Below are positions 4,469 to 54,965 of a stretch of 54,965 nucleotides of DNA, piece after piece. Positions within the stretch are counted from its first letter, which is position 1; each line of letters starts with the position of its first letter. The notes beneath the pieces were generated by a model. That model ran no database searches. It was not told where the DNA came from and saw only the letters and a list, made by a program, of their open reading frames with translations. A program made the translations under genes and the position numbers. Where the stretch lies: IMG/VR virus record IMGVR_UViG_3300032085_001238. One strand, given 5' to 3'. The DNA comes from an uncultured virus (IMG/VR IMGVR_UViG_3300032085_001238). Its lineage: Duplodnaviria > Heunggongvirae > Uroviricota > Caudoviricetes.

Positions 4469-5035
4469 TTAAAACTCCTTCATTGGTAAATAATAAATTG
4501 TACTACCTGTAAAATAAGTATTTGAAGGTGGAGATACATTTATTGATTTATAAGTAACATTTTGTATACCATGATAATTCGACCTATTGTTTGAACGGTC
4601 GTGCCACCAAGTTACTTTTGTCCCACTTTTTGTCCAAGTGGATAAACTTGATGAAAATTGTTTTGCATTATCATCACCATAAGTATCATAAAATATTCCA
4701 TCATATGTTCCTAATGAATCTTTGACATCATACCAACTTTGAGATACAATGGTTACATTGGATTTTCCATTTGCCCATTCTACGGCTTTTGGAATTATTT
4801 CAGGATGATTTTCAACAATAATATGAGAATCAATACTATGAGAATGCATATATCCAGCTGATATTCCCATACCGAAACCTATTTCCAATATGTCTCCACC
4901 ACCTTCGGTTACATAAGCTGCAGAAGCTGACATTACATCATCTTCCCAAGACATCATAACTTCATTATCCATTCCATCTATTGTGATTTTATCAGATTCA
5001 AATACTAATGATTGTGATACATACCAATTACTCAT
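4469..5035 (-). CDS. Class I SAM-dependent methyltransferase, GAMT/RMT2-like
   Basis: VMMSWE..M, ILEIGFGMGIS, HIIVENHPEI and YDGIFYDTY match hallmark motifs of guanidinoacetate/Rmt2 arginine methyltransferases. Confidence 0.85.
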   Translation of the reverse strand: MSNWYVSQSLVFESDKITIDGMDNEVMMSWEDDVMSASAAYVTEGGGDILEIGFGMGISAGYMHSHSIDSHIIVENHPEIIPKAVEWANGKSNVTIVSQSWYDVKDSLGTYDGIFYDTYGDDNAKQFSSSLSTWTKSGTKVTWWHDRSNNRSNYHGIQNVTYKSINVSPPSNTYFTGSTIYYLPMKEF

Positions 5036-49283: not shown

Positions 49284-49310
49284 ATAAAAAACCCACAATG
49301 AAGTGGGTTT
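49284..49310 (-). terminator. Intrinsic terminator after the sigma gene
   Basis: Minus strand AAACCCAC-TTCATT-GTGGGTTT running into a T tract, 5 nt after the stop codon. Confidence 0.75.
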
Positions 49311-49315
49311 AGTAT

Positions 49316-50068
49316 TTAAAAGAATGAACTTGAGGTATTGAATAAAATTGAACCATTATTATAGTATTTATTTAATAGTTTTTTGTAGTGTTTTTTTAAA
49401 ACATTAACAACTGATGTTATATGTGTTGTTTCCACATCAGTCATTTCTCTAATTAAAATGTAGATTGCTTTTTTATTGAAGTTTTCTATATCTTCTCGTG
49501 CTTTCATTAAATCTATAATAGCGTATCCAATTTTTAAATCTCTATCTTTTTTAAATATAGTGTTCATATTATTATCAAAATATTCAACGATTTCATCTGT
49601 TAAAGTTATGTAGTCAGATTCATTAAACCCACTCGCTTTATGTTGCCTATCCAATGCATCCATTTTATCATGAGATTTTAATTTTTTATAATTGTTATTG
49701 TTATGGAGAATTAAATAGTTTTTAGCCACAACTGAAAAATAACTAAATGCTTTTGAACCTTTTGTGTGGTCATATTTATGCATATTCACTACCATAAAGG
49801 CTACAACTTCGTGTTTAATATCTTCAAACCCATAATCAAAATAAGTAAATTTAAAAGTATTAATTATATTTTCAGCAAGTTTATCAAAAGCTTTATGTAT
49901 TCTTGTACCATAAATTACATTTCTTTCATTATCATCAGTTGATGAATTATATTCCACAACTGCATCTTGAACCTCTTGCCCAAAATAAACTTTTCGTTTT
50001 TTCTTTTTTGTTATTTTTTTAATTTCAGCTTTAACATCATTAACTTTTTTATTTTGTTTTTTTGTCAT
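49316..50068 (-). CDS. Phage late-transcription sigma factor, T4 gp55-like
   Basis: KLAENII..FKF.Y...KYD..KGSKAFSYFSVVAKNYLI parallels the gp55/sigma region-2 motif; start moved to ATG 50068 (GAGGGAG SD). Confidence 0.72.
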   Translation of the reverse strand: MTKKQNKKVNDVKAEIKKITKKKKRKVYFGQEVQDAVVEYNSSTDDNERNVIYGTRIHKAFDKLAENIINTFKFTYFDYGFEDIKHEVVAFMVVNMHKYDHTKGSKAFSYFSVVAKNYLILHNNNNYKKLKSHDKMDALDRQHKASGFNESDYITLTDEIVEYFDNNMNTIFKKDRDLKIGYAIIDLMKAREDIENFNKKAIYILIREMTDVETTHITSVVNVLKKHYKKLLNKYYNNGSILFNTSSSFF

Positions 50069-50327
50069 TTGTAGCTCCCTCTTCAAATATCCCATCAAGG
50101 GCTAATTGAATTTGTTTTAATTGTTCAAAGAAAAAACCTGTCTCATCATCTGATTCATAATGTCCTTTAGAATCTACAAGTTTCATTTTATCCGTTGAGA
50201 ATTTTATCACTTGTTGAATTTCTAAAATTAATTCTTCGTATTGTGTTATTCTTCGTAAAGAGTAATACACCAATGTAGATGTAAAGGCACTTATTAAGAA
50301 AAACAATATTGTTAAAAATATCCACAT
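50049..50327 (-). CDS. Small membrane-anchored protein
   Basis: N-terminal hydrophobic helix followed by a helical segment; AGGAG SD. Confidence 0.7.
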   Translation of the reverse strand: MWIFLTILFFLISAFTSTLVYYSLRRITQYEELILEIQQVIKFSTDKMKLVDSKGHYESDDETGFFFEQLKQIQLALDGIFEEGATNDKKTK

Positions 50328-50335
50328 ACTATCTC

Positions 50336-51082
50336 CTAATTAGAAAACAATTCATCAAATTTATTTTTGAGATTGTCTACTTGTTTTTGTTCATCTTTTG
50401 TTTTTGGAACTTTTGTATTTATTGGTTCACCTGATTCCTCACCTCTATTCCATTGGTCGGATTCAATATGTGTAGCCATCATATCGGCTTGATGAAGAAT
50501 GTAAGCCATATTGGTTCTCAATCCAAAGTCAGGATTCCAAGACATCAAGTATGCTTTGTTAGCCTCATCATATAAACCATCCGTTAATTTAATCCCAATG
50601 TATTCCTTATCAGTAACCTTGACACCATAATGTTGAAGTAACCATAACCCTCTATCAGGTACTTTCATATATTGAAGAGCTGGATTGTGAGTATAAATCT
50701 CATCACGATTTTTTCTATGCCAGTCTGATGTTTGTGGGATATAATAGTCGTGTTCTAAATCACCAACCTTACCTAAGTCGTGATGTAAAGCAGCAAAGAC
50801 TAACTCCTCATCTGTGAAGTTAATCTCAGCTCCATTGTTTGCCCACACTTGTTTTAATTCAAGTGAGTTGCTTACAATGTGAAGAATATGTTCAACATAT
50901 CCACCGGGCATCGCGTTGTGATAATGTCCTTTAGCACTCGCCGGTGCAAACATCATTCTATCTTTGAAGTCATCATAAAACTTCATAAGGTTGTCTCTTC
51001 TATCATCACCAACATATTTATTGATGATAGCTATCAGTTCTTCCCAATTACTTTGTATTTCATTTGCTGTTAATTTTTTCAT
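50336..51082 (-). CDS. HD-domain phosphohydrolase (YhaM-like HD motif)
   Basis: PAS...YHNA.PGGYVEH...ALHHDLGK...ILHQAD. Confidence 0.85.
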   Translation of the reverse strand: MKKLTANEIQSNWEELIAIINKYVGDDRRDNLMKFYDDFKDRMMFAPASAKGHYHNAMPGGYVEHILHIVSNSLELKQVWANNGAEINFTDEELVFAALHHDLGKVGDLEHDYYIPQTSDWHRKNRDEIYTHNPALQYMKVPDRGLWLLQHYGVKVTDKEYIGIKLTDGLYDEANKAYLMSWNPDFGLRTNMAYILHQADMMATHIESDQWNRGEESGEPINTKVPKTKDEQKQVDNLKNKFDELFSN

Positions 51083-52446
51083 TATTCTCCTATATATTCA
51101 TAACCATATTTGGTAAATTTAATTTCTTTGTATTTTCTTAATGCATTTCTATAAGGACTGAATTTAATTCTAACACCCCAACCAAGATAATCTAATATAT
51201 TTTTCTTGGTTACAAAACCTTTGTCTTTAATAAAGTCTCGTATTTTTAGAACAGTTTCTGTTTCACTAATTGAATCTAATTCAAAAACATTTTTCCAACC
51301 ACCAAACCAATTAGATATTCTTTCTTCCCAAATCATATTGTCTGCTAAATCACTTGTATCATATGTGATTGGATTATCCAACATCTCATTAAACCTTTTA
51401 ATAAAATCATTTCTATCATCGTATAAATAAGGATATGGGTTTTTAGCAACACTCGTCATCTCAGGATAACATAGTTTGTTTGGTAATAAATAAGGAACAC
51501 CGACTGAGAATCCGTCAGTTGTTGAGATACTCCAAGCAGAATATGTTTGAAATGTCCCTACTCCAAATTTCATAGTGGATAAGAAGTCCATATATTCATC
51601 ACGACTTTCACAATTAACTTTTTCATTCCACGGCCTATCAACTTGTGTTAGTGTTGTGTATACTTTGAAGTCTTGTCTTTGTTCCCATATTTCATCACAT
51701 ACTTTTACAAACCATTCCCATCCAGTATAACCAGCGCCTCTATGATTGAATACAACTGTTTTGTCTTTGTAATCTTTTCTTATATTAACTCTATCAACAC
51801 CAAGATAATGTGGTTGTATAATTTTTTGTAATCTATCCAACACTCCTTGATTCCAATGTTTACTTGCTTCTTTGATTGTCAATTGTTTCAACCAATTACT
51901 ATTCACTCCACACTCGTCTTGCATTAATAAACCAGCTACACTTAAATACAATGCTCTCGCTGGGTCATCTTTATGCATTCCACCTCTGTCCCCATAGGGA
52001 GCATTTTGTGGAACTTCAAACCAATGAGAATAACCAATAAACTTTGGTGATAGATTTGAATTATTGTTTAGACAATTTGCTATCTGTAAAGTATGTTCAG
52101 GTAAATGAGTATAAACAATATCAAAATCATTTCTCTTCCAATCAACATGTTTCATAAATTGTTTTGTATTGAAGTGTTGTCTCATTGTATTGATATAACT
52201 TGGTAACTCATATATTCTTTGGTCAACATTTGGGAAGTCCAATGATTGAACAAATTCAGGTATTAGTAAAGTGAAATGAACTTTCCATCTTTTACTTATG
52301 AATGGTATTGTATGTCTTAATACTTCAACCAAACTATCTGCTTCTAAATTTTTTCTATATGTGTAATTACCATAAAGTAATATCTTATAATCATATTGAG
52401 TACTTTTATTTTTATCTACAAAGTAATCACTTACATCTTTTATCAT
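51082..52446 (-). CDS. GT-B fold glycosyltransferase (GT4-like)
   Basis: FDIVYTHLPE, VVFNHR, WSISTTDGFSVGVPYLLP..LCYPE; start at ATG 52446 (GGAGG SD, ATGA overlap). Confidence 0.75.
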   Translation of the reverse strand: MIKDVSDYFVDKNKSTQYDYKILLYGNYTYRKNLEADSLVEVLRHTIPFISKRWKVHFTLLIPEFVQSLDFPNVDQRIYELPSYINTMRQHFNTKQFMKHVDWKRNDFDIVYTHLPEHTLQIANCLNNNSNLSPKFIGYSHWFEVPQNAPYGDRGGMHKDDPARALYLSVAGLLMQDECGVNSNWLKQLTIKEASKHWNQGVLDRLQKIIQPHYLGVDRVNIRKDYKDKTVVFNHRGAGYTGWEWFVKVCDEIWEQRQDFKVYTTLTQVDRPWNEKVNCESRDEYMDFLSTMKFGVGTFQTYSAWSISTTDGFSVGVPYLLPNKLCYPEMTSVAKNPYPYLYDDRNDFIKRFNEMLDNPITYDTSDLADNMIWEERISNWFGGWKNVFELDSISETETVLKIRDFIKDKGFVTKKNILDYLGWGVRIKFSPYRNALRKYKEIKFTKYGYEYIGE

Positions 52447-53825
52447 GCTACCTCCGATTCTATTTTTGGTCTGTTGCAATCTTTACAACTAACAAAAGTA
52501 TTTTCTTCTGTAGTTTTTCCACCATGCGTCCAGGCCTTCTTGTGTGCTTTTATAACATCATCCAAGTTTATGTCTTTACCACAACCTTGACATTTCTTAT
52601 CAGCTTTAAACCACATATCCATAGCTATAGTGTCTGACACAACTCTCTTTGGGTCAACCACAGTAACACCATCACATTTTTTTAACTCTTTTAACAAGTA
52701 ATATAATCTTAATTGTAAACCACTACCACTAGCATCAAGTCTTGTTTTTTGATGGTAGTTTGTTTCCTCTATACCTTGTTTTTTTTGTTTGTCTGATACT
52801 TTACTTAGTTTTTGATGAGTATTAAAAAACCACTCTCTGAATTTATGATTGTGACTTATATTAATACCATTTTTATTATGTGAACAATATTCTATTATCA
52901 TCATTAAGTTAAGTAATACACCAAGATTAATAATCTTTCTATATTTTTTATCTTCTATCATTAGAAAAATTTGCTGTAAAATTTTATTTATTTTTTTATC
53001 TAACTTAAAGTTTTTTCTATAATTTATATTTTGATATAAATCATCAAGTGTTTTTTTAATTACACCATTTTTCTTTCCAGAACCCTCAATGTATGCAACT
53101 ATTTTTGCAAGTGCTTCATCTTGTAACATTTTTTTAAATTTTAAATTTATATATTCGCCATTTAATGATTCATCTCTTGAAAACAATTTATGTGGTTGAA
53201 GTCTAGCAGTATTTCTAATATAATCACCAGCAGATGAAACTATTGCATTTCTTTTCTCTTGTGCTGTCATATTATTCAAATCATTTAAATCAATAAATAA
53301 TTTATGAATAACCTCTTCATCCATTGAAAAACATGCCACACAACTTAAATTTTTAGTTACAAACTTTTCAGCTATATCTGGATATTTATTTTGAATTTGT
53401 GTAAAGCTCAGTCCACTAATATCAACTGTTTCGTGATAATCATTACCAAAATCAATACGAACTGATGTACCTATTGGTGTTTCAAATTTATCGTTTAGAA
53501 AATCAACACAAGTTCTTGACCTTTGTTGACCATCAATCATTTCTGATAGGTAATTATAAAATCCTTTATCATCGACAGCTGAATTAAATGGTTCTATGGC
53601 ATTAACTCTGACATATAGATTTGGAATAACCATTTCAGTTGACAGTATATTTTTTATAAGTTTTTGCTGCCACTTCTGTCTATCTTGAGCGATATAGTCT
53701 CTTTGGTATTGTGGATTCATATTAAGTTTGTTGTTTTCAAACAACTCTTTGATTTGCCCGATTGGGACTTCTATTTTAGTTTGCTTCATTTTAAAGCTCC
53801 TCTTGTTTGTTATTGTAATTTCCAT
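52443..53825 (-). CDS. DUF262 (ParB/Srx-like, GmrS-type) protein with a C-terminal HNH domain
   Basis: PQYQR, W...LI, IP, IDGQQR, F..LN; C-terminal CQGC...H...W..GG.T..EN....C..CN; alternative start at 53789 with AGGAG SD. Confidence 0.85.
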   Translation of the reverse strand: MEITITNKRSFKMKQTKIEVPIGQIKELFENNKLNMNPQYQRDYIAQDRQKWQQKLIKNILSTEMVIPNLYVRVNAIEPFNSAVDDKGFYNYLSEMIDGQQRSRTCVDFLNDKFETPIGTSVRIDFGNDYHETVDISGLSFTQIQNKYPDIAEKFVTKNLSCVACFSMDEEVIHKLFIDLNDLNNMTAQEKRNAIVSSAGDYIRNTARLQPHKLFSRDESLNGEYINLKFKKMLQDEALAKIVAYIEGSGKKNGVIKKTLDDLYQNINYRKNFKLDKKINKILQQIFLMIEDKKYRKIINLGVLLNLMMIIEYCSHNKNGINISHNHKFREWFFNTHQKLSKVSDKQKKQGIEETNYHQKTRLDASGSGLQLRLYYLLKELKKCDGVTVVDPKRVVSDTIAMDMWFKADKKCQGCGKDINLDDVIKAHKKAWTHGGKTTEENTFVSCKDCNRPKIESEVA

Positions 53826-53860
53826 TCAAATTAATAACTCCTCGTGAGTTATTTTGAATG
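53823..53860 (-). promoter_or_regulatory. Stem-loop covering the first SD and AUG of the DUF262-HNH gene
   Basis: CATTCAA AATAACTC-ACGAG-GAGTTATT(AAT)TTGAATG: 15-bp stem with a 3-nt bulge. Confidence 0.55.
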
Positions 53861-53919
53861 AAGTTAATTTTATTAACATTAATACATATGTATTTATTTT
53901 TCAAAACCATTGATTTTTT

Positions 53920-54965
53920 TTATCTTCCAACTTCACCTAAATATTTTTCTTTACATTGTTCCCAAGTCATATTCAATATATCCGAGTAATATAACATCTC
54001 AGGCTTTAATCTATTTTCTGTATGTAACTTGGTATATCTTTTTATTGCTTTTCTTTTCCACCATTTGTTAATGTATTCAGAACCTTGAGCAAACTTTGGT
54101 CTCATAACTAATTCATCAGCACCAATTTCATTTCTTAAAAAGTCTCTTCCGTTTTCATAAAATGAACTAAAGTAAACTCCTCGTTTAAATCCGTGATTGT
54201 AATGTGATTTAACAATTCCTAATTCTTTAAACATATATGAAATCAATGTTTGTTTAACTCCAGTAGGAGGACCATTCACTCCTTCTTTAGGTGTCATAAT
54301 TTTTTTATAATCATCAGCTCTTTCATCTTTCATCCAATCAAGCCAGGGTTTATAAACTGAATCATCAGGCTTCAATGCAATCTTACCAGCCGACTCACCA
54401 AGAGTTTTCCATACAGGTATTCCATTGTACATTGAATGAACACCATACAATGCTGTAGTGGTTAATCCAACTAATTCATCACCATAAGTTTTCTTCCAAT
54501 GAGCTCTTAATGATTCATCAGTTAATAACATAGCCACTAACTTACCACCAAGAAAGTTAAATCCAAATGGTTGAGTTGCTACAATGGATGTTCCAATACT
54601 TGTACATCTTAATTTACCATCTTTAAATTTATTATCTTTACTCCACCCAATGTAATCATCTCTAACACCAAGTGATGTAATATCTGAACCTAATGACATC
54701 ATACCTAAAACTTTATTAGTATTTCTATCTTTAGCAATTACTTTAATGTTTCTACCTGGATTAGCTACATATTCCATTGAATGGATAAGTCTTCTAAGAA
54801 GTGTCCAATTCTCAACTGATTGTTGATTCTTACTATCTACGATTTCAACATAAGGGTCAAGGTTTTCTATTTCCGATATTGTTAAATCTAAATTATTTAT
54901 ATCTGTTGGTTTCCATATCTTCTGAGAGAATATATCAAACTTATAAGCATACTTTTGAAAGTCAG
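53920..54965 (-). CDS. DUF4338/DruA-like protein, 5' end truncated by the window
   Basis: PGR.I...., LG..SLGS.....RD.YIGW, PFGFN.LGGKLVAML, YG..L....TT.LYG..S.YN; the frame stays open from 54777 to the window edge. Confidence 0.75.
   Translation of the reverse strand, partial: DFQKYAYKFDIFSQKIWKPTDINNLDLTISEIENLDPYVEIVDSKNQQSVENWTLLRRLIHSMEYVANPGRNIKVIAKDRNTNKVLGMMSLGSDITSLGVRDDYIGWSKDNKFKDGKLRCTSIGTSIVATQPFGFNFLGGKLVAMLLTDESLRAHWKKTYGDELVGLTTTALYGVHSMYNGIPVWKTLGESAGKIALKPDDSVYKPWLDWMKDERADDYKKIMTPKEGVNGPPTGVKQTLISYMFKELGIVKSHYNHGFKRGVYFSSFYENGRDFLRNEIGADELVMRPKFAQGSEYINKWWKRKAIKRYTKLHTENRLKPEMLYYSDILNMTWEQCKEKYLGEVGR

Follow-up and report, generated by a model that had tools for sequence, protein, structure and literature searches.

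The window analysed here is the whole 54,965-nucleotide stretch of an uncultured Caudoviricetes virus (IMG/VR record IMGVR_UViG_3300032085_001238), a fragment of a low-GC phage that carries baseplate, primase, RuvC-like and SbcC-like genes. The sequencing runs richest in its sequence are seawater metagenomes, and small shares of it were also found in RNA runs. Four minus-strand open reading frames (ORFs) lie near its end and encode, from upstream to downstream, a DUF4338 protein of the DruA family, a DUF262-HNH protein, a glycosyltransferase (GT) of the GT-B fold, and an HD-superfamily phosphohydrolase (Table 1). The initial annotation described four co-oriented genes, the last three with overlapping stop and start codons, and this arrangement is present: ATGA at 52443-52446 is shared by DUF262-HNH and the GT, the GT and HD genes meet at 51082, and a gap of 94 nucleotides separates DUF4338 from the DUF262 ORF. 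Its family labels stand as well, since DruA, GmrSD_N and HNH score above their Pfam cut-offs, the GT-B assignment follows from structure, and that of HD from PHROGs. Comparison with relatives shows that DUF4338 and the GT form the conserved core of the locus, and that DUF262-HNH is optional cargo in a swap-slot between them.

The relatives comprise the best 80 of 249 loci from a GT scan and the best 80 of 551 loci from a DUF4338 scan, a sample that leans to close relatives. None of the 25 close loci, in which the GT is 93-100% identical to that of the window, contains DUF262, and in all 13 of those where DUF4338 is visible, this gene overlaps the GT start directly. In the relative L003, the block 52454-53914 is absent, and the sequence flanking it on either side matches the window at 96-97% identity. 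A census of the slot was taken over GT loci with DUF4338 no more than 5 kb upstream, with the exclusion of 54 GT loci that have no DUF4338 in this range; of its 49 distinct loci, the window included, the slot is empty in 28, contains DUF262-HNH in 6, and is occupied by other nucleases or modifiers in 15. Among the other cargo are TAGT, an N6/N4 methylase, a PLOD-type GT, Mom with EndoVII, GHKL and ParB-like proteins, and a DG[QK]HR family. The initial interpretation is borne out in so far as DUF4338 travels with the GT and the slot between them is filled by nucleases and DNA modifiers. Two protein families of the slot may be recorded here. The first, of 515-600 residues, mostly combines DG[QK]HR with a degenerate C-terminal HNH-like motif (xSH, xAH, xGH or xDH), and its loci are L043:8449-10122, L047, L048, L057, L081:1462-3132, L083, and L096. 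The second, of 415-443 residues (L045:2152-3480, L046, L106, and L112), is located in the slot or after the GT and has a weak N-terminal match to a homing-endonuclease PHROG.

The slot is also polymorphic within populations. Insert-bearing and insert-skipping contigs occur together in four of four seawater runs from four studies, one of which is possibly the source sample. The skipping contigs join 52446 to 53898 or 53920, thereby dropping 52447-53897 or 52447-53919. The insert is not a misassembly, as contigs of 1573 nucleotides span both junctions without differences in two runs. A loose end of contig X11 at 53921 gives a translation resembling the beginning of the TAGT cargo, which hints at a third allele. 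A promoter scan returned 33 sites against 36.5 expected, and no promoter is claimed for the insert. The proposal that the four genes constitute one unit is therefore not sustained, as DUF262-HNH is optional and polymorphic, and the HD gene is unlinked to the GT in relatives; of the co-occurrence expected among relatives, the joint travel of DUF4338 and the GT was observed, and neither DUF262-HNH nor HD is tied to them.

Table 1. Features of the DUF4338-GT locus and its downstream flank in the window.
Feature	Coordinates	Strand	Basis
DUF4338 (DruA-family) protein with GNAT fold, Mom-like; conserved core	53920..54965	-	Pfam DruA, 78.7 bits; structure model
Optional insert of ~1.46 kb (swap-slot) at the junction of DUF4338 stop and GT start	52454..53914	.	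Absent from L003; contigs skip the block
DUF262 (ParB-fold NTPase), helical region and zinc-finger HNH (K-A-H / N / N)	52443..53789	-	Pfam; homolog alignment
His-Me finger (HNH) domain; catalytic His at ~52542-52544, preceded by Ala, not Asp/Glu	52443..52592	-	
GT-B glycosyltransferase (GT4-like), 454 residues, with N-terminal aromatic peptide resembling a polymerase terminal motif	51082..52446	-	Model
GT C-terminal winged-helix-like domain, putatively DNA-binding	51085..51270	-	Model
HD-superfamily phosphohydrolase, lineage core gene, outside the module	50336..51082	-	phrog_5889, phrog_28876
Conserved 92-residue ORF, no family	50049..50327	-	
Conserved 259-residue ORF with C-terminal aromatic pair; 'late sigma' label unsupported	49316..50098	-	
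Terminator-like hairpin after the 259-residue ORF	49289-49310		

The DUF262-HNH ORF extends from 52443 to 53825, where an in-frame upstream ATG is located; the likely start is at 53789. Both its GmrSD_N match (40.9 bits) and its HNH match (26 bits) exceed the Pfam cut-offs, and the DUF262 motifs QR, DGQQR and FxxxN are present in the alignment. Among the 34 closest homologs, DGQQR is found in all 31 that span the region. DUF1524/GmrSD_C gave no match at E 0.1 in the window protein and none was listed for 120 homologs; these are the listed 120 of 197 DUF262-HNH homologs, for which the tree is a quick version. The KAH of the HNH domain, noted in the initial annotation, is present and is characteristic of the clade: K-[AG]-H together with the helix Asn occurs in 22 of 22 close homologs that possess an HNH, whereas 83 of 86 distant ones carry D-H. 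The acidic residue before the catalytic His is absent in all 22, in which the His, both Asn residues and the invariant Lys are kept. The strand-1 catalytic His and the metal-binding Asn/His of the helix, which define the His-Me finger (PMC5714182), are likewise found in 22 of 22. In that superfamily, the helix Asn is mostly the sole direct metal ligand, the acidic residue before the His often assists, and active NucA-type nucleases carry DRGH (PMC5714182). The ratio of nonsynonymous to synonymous substitution rates (dN/dS) of the HNH is 0.12-0.36 in five pairs, 0 in one, and undefined in one, compared with 0.19-1.11 for the first 200 codons of DUF262-HNH. KAH had led the initial annotation to call nuclease activity uncertain; a reading of it as decay is at odds with the conservation of the motif in 22 of 22 homologs and with purifying selection. 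The active site is accordingly a maintained variant, and the protein is a predicted nuclease.

A dispensable HNH was considered, as 12 of the 34 close homologs are without the domain, and was rejected: six loci (L200, L201, L202, L213, L215, and L218) carry it as a separate downstream ORF. In this split form, a gene of 382-410 residues is followed by an HNH gene of 83-87 residues that still has K-A-H, the dN/dS values of the split HNH ORFs being 0.10 and 0.21; the pairs are located after a sigma-like gene. Co-travel of DUF262-HNH with one GT clade was similarly rejected as a strict rule, because the adjacent GTs are 35-100% identical to that of the window; most copies adjoin the clade of 76-100%. 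Viral and metagenome scans yielded 39 DUF262-HNH loci, several of which are the same phage. Thirty of them adjoin a DUF4338, GT, Mom or sigma-like-region gene of this phage group, eight have uninformative neighbours, and one is a weak match. A prokaryote genome scan for DUF262-HNH found none, a single-sequence viral scan returned nothing, and GmrSD_N matched in 2 of 14 related records and in none of the three near-complete ones. The N-terminal DUF262 part has weak matches (E ~4e-4), annotated as hypothetical, in 109 enterobacterial phage records, mostly Klebsiella phages (e.g., OK631812.1 145945-146340).

The 5' end of the DUF4338 ORF is cut by the window edge, beyond which ~50 N-terminal codons are located; the full length in relatives is 398-400 residues. 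The Pfam DruA match (78.7 bits) compares with a cut-off of 27, and the PADLOC family is DruA too. The fold was modelled on the full-length L003 homolog, which is 98% identical over the shared part, with a predicted local distance difference test (pLDDT) of 80.7. The model is a GNAT fold, in agreement with the naming of DUF4338 as a GNAT in PMC10853773. Whether DUF4338 matches Mom or GNAT proteins had been posed as a check, and Mu Mom (8bv8) ranked first in both Foldseek (E 2.1e-3) and VIA (Z 10.4, root-mean-square deviation 4.0, 169 residues aligned). A Pfam scan at E 0.1 found no match to PF25680 (Mom) in DUF4338, whose own conserved residues are R124, S146, D147, R154, K194, and R314. Canonical Mom genes, two or three each, occur in 10 of 14 related records, and the remaining four records are no more than 42% complete. 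Homologs of DUF4338 are present in the cultured Pelagibacter phages Mosig and HTVC008M and in Synechococcus phage S-CAM9, and in a large clade of relatives the gene order is PolB, clamp, DUF4338, clamp loader. Among 28 long homologs, hand-picked from 150 listed, ParB_N is fused to DUF4338 in eight (seven above the cut-off) and a UDG-superfamily domain in one; the fusion records are P0366, P0368, P0371, P0377, P0387, P0389, P0401, P0497, and P0386. A ParB-like targeting subunit had been proposed for DUF262. The ParB_N fusions lend this idea some substance; however, the slot is empty in 28 of 49 loci, and DUF262-HNH is therefore not a required targeting subunit. Tandem DUF4338 paralogs of 394 and 361 residues were observed at L153:5971-8227.

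A tRNA-Gly is located no more than 400 nucleotides upstream of DUF4338 in 10 of 87 loci, and all 11 tRNAs found there are Gly. A pattern built from the atypical tRNA-Gly matched 18 viral contigs, and DUF4338 follows ~50 nucleotides downstream in 18 of 18. This tRNA keeps G1-C72, C2-G71, G3-C70 and U73, has A8 and U14, and bears the anticodon TCC or ACC (ACC in 3 of 18); its 51-63 pair is variable and at times mismatched, and 9 of 21 pairs are changed on both sides. A T-stem with such a 51-63 pair would weaken EF-Tu binding. A low-scoring tRNA-Gly(TCC) also lies ~65 nucleotides upstream of a canonical Mom gene (G011:C1:31458-32269, L266). The tRNA-Gly before DUF4338 in relatives suggests a Mom-like glycyl transfer. 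In the window, a tRNA search found none. The tRNA-Gly genes of L234-L251 (alignment A7) lie between an AT-rich, promoter-like stretch upstream and a short GGCCAGC-type element downstream, both of them conserved, and in L210 a second tRNA-Gly is located immediately upstream of the first.

The window GT protein has no match in Pfam, PHROG, NCBIfam, PADLOC or PDB sequences, the last being searched with both a single sequence and a profile. Its model has a pLDDT of 92 and a GT-B fold over residues 16-391. The best VIA score (Z 25.5) is obtained with BshA and sucrose-phosphate synthase, followed by 20.4 for the phage HY126 GT and 17.5 for the T4 alpha-GT; the fold therefore does not name the GT substrate, and does not single out the DNA glucosyltransferases for which a match had been sought. 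Glycos_transf_1 matched 13 of 93 GT homologs, and the AGT and BGT families none of the 93. Most GT-B structure matches stop near residue 391, after which the tail (residues ~396-450) forms three helices and then a two-strand hairpin with conserved W, G, Y, R and R. TFIIE_beta, which we take to be a winged helix, matched 2 of the 93 homologs (best E 5e-4), and an Atlas search with the tail gave no usable match (best 0.79). A terminal motif of the form hydrophobic-x-x-aromatic-aromatic is shared by the PolB C-terminus (33/35), the GT N-terminus (40/87) and DUF4338 (32/88), against an interior background of 2-4%, and was found in neither HD (0/60) nor DUF262-HNH (0/4); a looser aromatic pair, which has no background figure, occurs in 84 of 88 DUF4338 proteins. 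The cargo modifiers TAGT, PLOD-type GT and N6/N4 methylase (L063:6204-6989, L081:494-1303, and L072:844-2004) end in a polymerase-like N-x-F-F. A complex prediction for a relative's clamp with residues 1-30 of its GT scored 0.02 and counts neither way.

Homologs of the GT were found in 24 of 33 records and in two of three near-complete ones, and none among cultured phages. Two GT allele classes occur on one backbone, in which HD is at least 74% identical: one class, at 93-100% identity, has 15 loci and the other, at 48-53%, has 18, with none between. An alternation of GT classes, ~50% identical to each other, was noted between L071-L093 and L003-L016, and in L191 and L192 (G007, G008) the GT match has one internal TAA stop, indicating a broken or split gene. 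As for the acceptor, a hydroxymethylcytosine (hmC) target of the T-even type had been suggested earlier. The search for hmC-making genes covered five large relatives rather than the window's own genome: Tet_JBP and C5 methylase were found in none of the five, and the thymidylate-synthase fold gave one match in four and none in the fifth, a result that a divergent enzyme could escape. With no TET, C5-methylase or second thymidylate-synthase-fold gene in these relatives, a T4-type hmC acceptor is unlikely, and the GT acceptor is probably another one.

The HD protein scores below the Pfam HD cut-off, and the H...HD...D metal motif is conserved in 59 of 59 homologs. Its gene follows the GT in most marine relatives and is present in five of five large relatives; in G002 and G003 it is separated from the GT by ~80 kb, and it also occurs in G009, where no GT was found. 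In L138, L144, L148, L165, and L173, HD directly follows DUF4338 with no GT. HD is accordingly a neighbouring core gene, separate from the GNAT-GT module. Further downstream, the ORF at 49316-50098 had been labelled a late sigma gene adjoining HD; a 92-residue ORF separates the two, and the label has no family support, as a sub-cut-off DUF1151 match was the sole Pfam result and PHROGs and NCBIfam gave nothing. The C-terminal aromatic pair of this protein is present in 35 of 54 homologs. Elsewhere in the window, 4469-5035 encodes a 188-residue ORF with a methyltransferase-like motif (ILEIGFGMG, seen by eye) and no PHROG match amid large structural-type genes, and 758-1549 encodes a 263-residue protein with a P-loop (GGPGSGKS), which matches ATPase and polynucleotide-kinase PHROGs.

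We propose, at slightly better than even confidence, that the locus is a DNA-hypermodification island with a swap-slot that marks self and cuts others in a large group of T4-like phages. The DUF4338 protein, by its predicted GNAT fold, would move an acyl group onto phage DNA; by analogy with Mom, this group is most likely glycine donated by Gly-tRNA(Gly). The GT-B enzyme would bind DNA by its winged-helix tail, probably recruited to the replisome, and would add its sugar to a base or to the earlier mark rather than to T4-type hmC. DNA marked in this way may resist host restriction as well as any nuclease acquired by the phage, and it is proposed that this protection is the reason why the DUF4338/GT junction hosts interchangeable, optional cargo. 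The cargo of the window is predicted to be an NTP-regulated DUF262-HNH endonuclease with a variant, conserved site, which would cut unmarked or differently marked DNA, be it the host chromosome or a co-infecting phage. A more specific version is doubtful: DUF4338 or Mom would place a glycine-derived carbamoylmethyl group on adenine via a dedicated non-ribosomal tRNA-Gly, the winged-helix GT would glycosylate this group at the fork to give a two-step purine mark, and GT alleles would produce different marks that the phage-only K-[AG]-H DUF262-HNH reads, so that phages restrict one another and self is defined by sugar type.

Several observations weigh against the proposed island. The Mom match is weak and near-tied, as the next GNAT reaches Z 10.0 against 10.4 and other GNATs are within 1-2 Z; a profile comparison of DUF4338 with Mom is not significant (probability 6%), and the Mom residues R111, S124 and R151, required for the transfer of glycine from Gly-tRNA(Gly) to N6-adenine (PMC13219725), could not be mapped onto DUF4338. 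The tRNA-Gly is limited to the 10 of 87 DUF4338 loci, the closest relatives of the window are without it, and the 18 pattern matches are related phages and not 18 independent events. The GT fold is nearer to small-molecule and glycan GT4 enzymes than to the T4 alpha-GT, the tail is missing from some distant GTs (372-379 residues), the GT is absent from one of three near-complete relatives, and the cargo nucleases of the slot have no terminal motif. Furthermore, DUF262-HNH accompanies more than one type of GT, given neighbours of 35-100% identity, and also occurs behind the sigma-like gene at sites where no GT is close by. Finally, D507A inactivates Eco94GmrSD, in which the Asp missing from the window HNH is essential (PMC4619093).

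This last result, together with the substitution of the Asp that normally precedes the catalytic His in all 22 close homologs that possess an HNH, the description of DUF262 as a sensor of modified DNA (PMC12065111) and the existence of ParB_N-DUF4338 fusions, is what a silent or weak DUF262-HNH would lead one to expect. Such a protein would serve as a reader or decoy that binds and shields marked DNA, positions modifiers, or poisons host GmrSD-like enzymes. We consider this role quite unlikely, as the His, both Asn and the invariant Lys are kept even in the separate HNH gene, the HNH is as constrained as the rest of the protein or more, and the slot is empty in most GT loci with DUF4338 upstream. 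A selfish role for the nuclease is also improbable, in which the GNAT and GT would mark DNA and DUF262-HNH, as a homing-type endonuclease, would, in co-infected cells, cut alleles without the insert close to the DUF4338/GT junction and copy itself into them. The clean insertion, polymorphic within populations, fits homing, as do GIY-YIG and EndoVII genes in the same neighbourhood, the two GT allele classes on one backbone, and a rise in differences from L003 to 17 over the final 150 nucleotides of DUF4338, compared with 0-7 elsewhere in the gene. However, that rise is not seen against L016, the same slot is also filled by non-nuclease modifiers, the DUF262-HNH clade occurs at no fewer than four positions, and homing endonucleases do not usually contain an NTPase DUF262 domain whose motifs are intact.

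The remaining explanations concern the core genes and the operon. The GNAT and GT may act on non-DNA targets, such as virion or host proteins, cell-surface glycans or tRNA, and the nucleases would then merely use a tolerant insertion site. The best structural matches of the GT are indeed glycan and small-molecule enzymes, no known acceptor-making pathway was found in relatives, lipopolysaccharide-type GTs occur in marine phages, and GNAT substrates are not predictable from structure (PMC13219725). Against this stand the winged-helix-like tail, the polymerase-like terminal peptide, the replisome synteny and the DNA-modifier and nuclease neighbours, as well as phage Kitkat, in which a close structural relative (gene 88, by length match alone) lies amid HNH, ParB-like and methyltransferase genes, and only a small chance is given to non-DNA targets. 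It is very improbable that the four genes constitute a dedicated modification-restriction operon of Druantia and GmrSD descent, in which HD would provide modified nucleotides. Co-orientation, overlapping stop and start codons and the position of HD after the GT in most marine relatives agree with it; however, it is already contradicted by the co-occurrence data, in which DUF262-HNH is optional, HD in large relatives is unlinked to the GT or present without it, HD directly follows DUF4338 in the five loci that have no GT there, and DUF1998 is not found in five relatives.

The island matters in several respects. For DUF4338/DruA, a defence protein of no assigned chemistry, it suggests a function that can be tested, namely that of a Mom-like, tRNA-dependent transferase. 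The GT family acceptor is seemingly not hmC, and the DNA of this widespread group of phages may therefore contain a new base. Phages are also seen to carry a GmrSD-like enzyme as an allelic variant that segregates in one population, which offers a natural experiment on restriction between phages. Should the nuclease be selfish cargo only, the slot would be no more than a usual hot spot for insertions, and the GNAT-GT pair would be what remains of interest.

Each component resembles a known system and departs from it. Like phage Mu Mom (PF25680; PDB 8bv8; PMC13219725), DUF4338 is a phage-encoded protein with a GNAT fold, and tRNA-Gly is located beside it in relatives; however, Mom has 241 residues against ~400, the Pfam match of DUF4338 is DruA, a GT is its partner, and related genomes hold canonical Mom genes besides DUF4338. 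Druantia type I DruA (PF14236) belongs to the same Pfam and PADLOC family, and a borrowed Druantia defence had been suggested. The core of Druantia type I is DruE, a YprA-family helicase with DUF1998. DUF1998 was found in none of five related records and none of the three that are at least 90% complete, in a search whose control was positive in 8 of 14 genomes; the gene is therefore not part of Druantia, and instead occupies a replisome context in many relatives or a modification-island context. The GT shares the GT-B fold of the T4 alpha-glucosyltransferase (PF11440; PDB 1y6f), which binds the clamp and co-purifies with gp45 (PMC13216743), and possesses a polymerase-like terminal peptide; it differs in the lack of any AGT match among its 93 homologs, in its extra C-terminal domain, and in that no hmC pathway was found in relatives.

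DUF262-HNH shares with GmrSD (DUF262 and DUF1524; PMC4619093) the motifs QR, DGQQR and FxxxN, a His-Me finger behind them, and the occurrence of fused and split forms. With ~450 residues, a predicted PF01844 HNH rather than DUF1524, K-[AG]-H where GmrSD has (E/D)H, and a phage location, it is classified from its sequence as not a canonical GmrSD. Menshen NsnA (PMC12065111) is similar over residues 12-342, where PADLOC reports an NsnA match with DUF262 and a helical domain; unlike Menshen, no ABC-ATPase NsnB or NsnC is adjacent, the neighbours are DUF4338 and the GT, and the protein has its own HNH. As in the Mom-REase fusions predicted in jumbo phages, for which a protect-self, cut-others function is likewise predicted (PMC7824862), a GNAT modifier is coupled to a nuclease; in the island the nuclease is separate, optional and exchangeable, DUF4338 serves as the GNAT, and there is a GT in addition. 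In the accessible portion of the literature, no paper was found on a phage DUF4338-GT pair or the DUF262-HNH clade; a 2013 survey of phage base-modifying systems, or supplementary tables, may list these families. The DUF4338-GT pair with its swappable, population-polymorphic DUF262-HNH is a variant of the protect-self, cut-others kind, in which the clade marked by K-[AG]-H, the split version of the gene and the polymorphism within populations are new.

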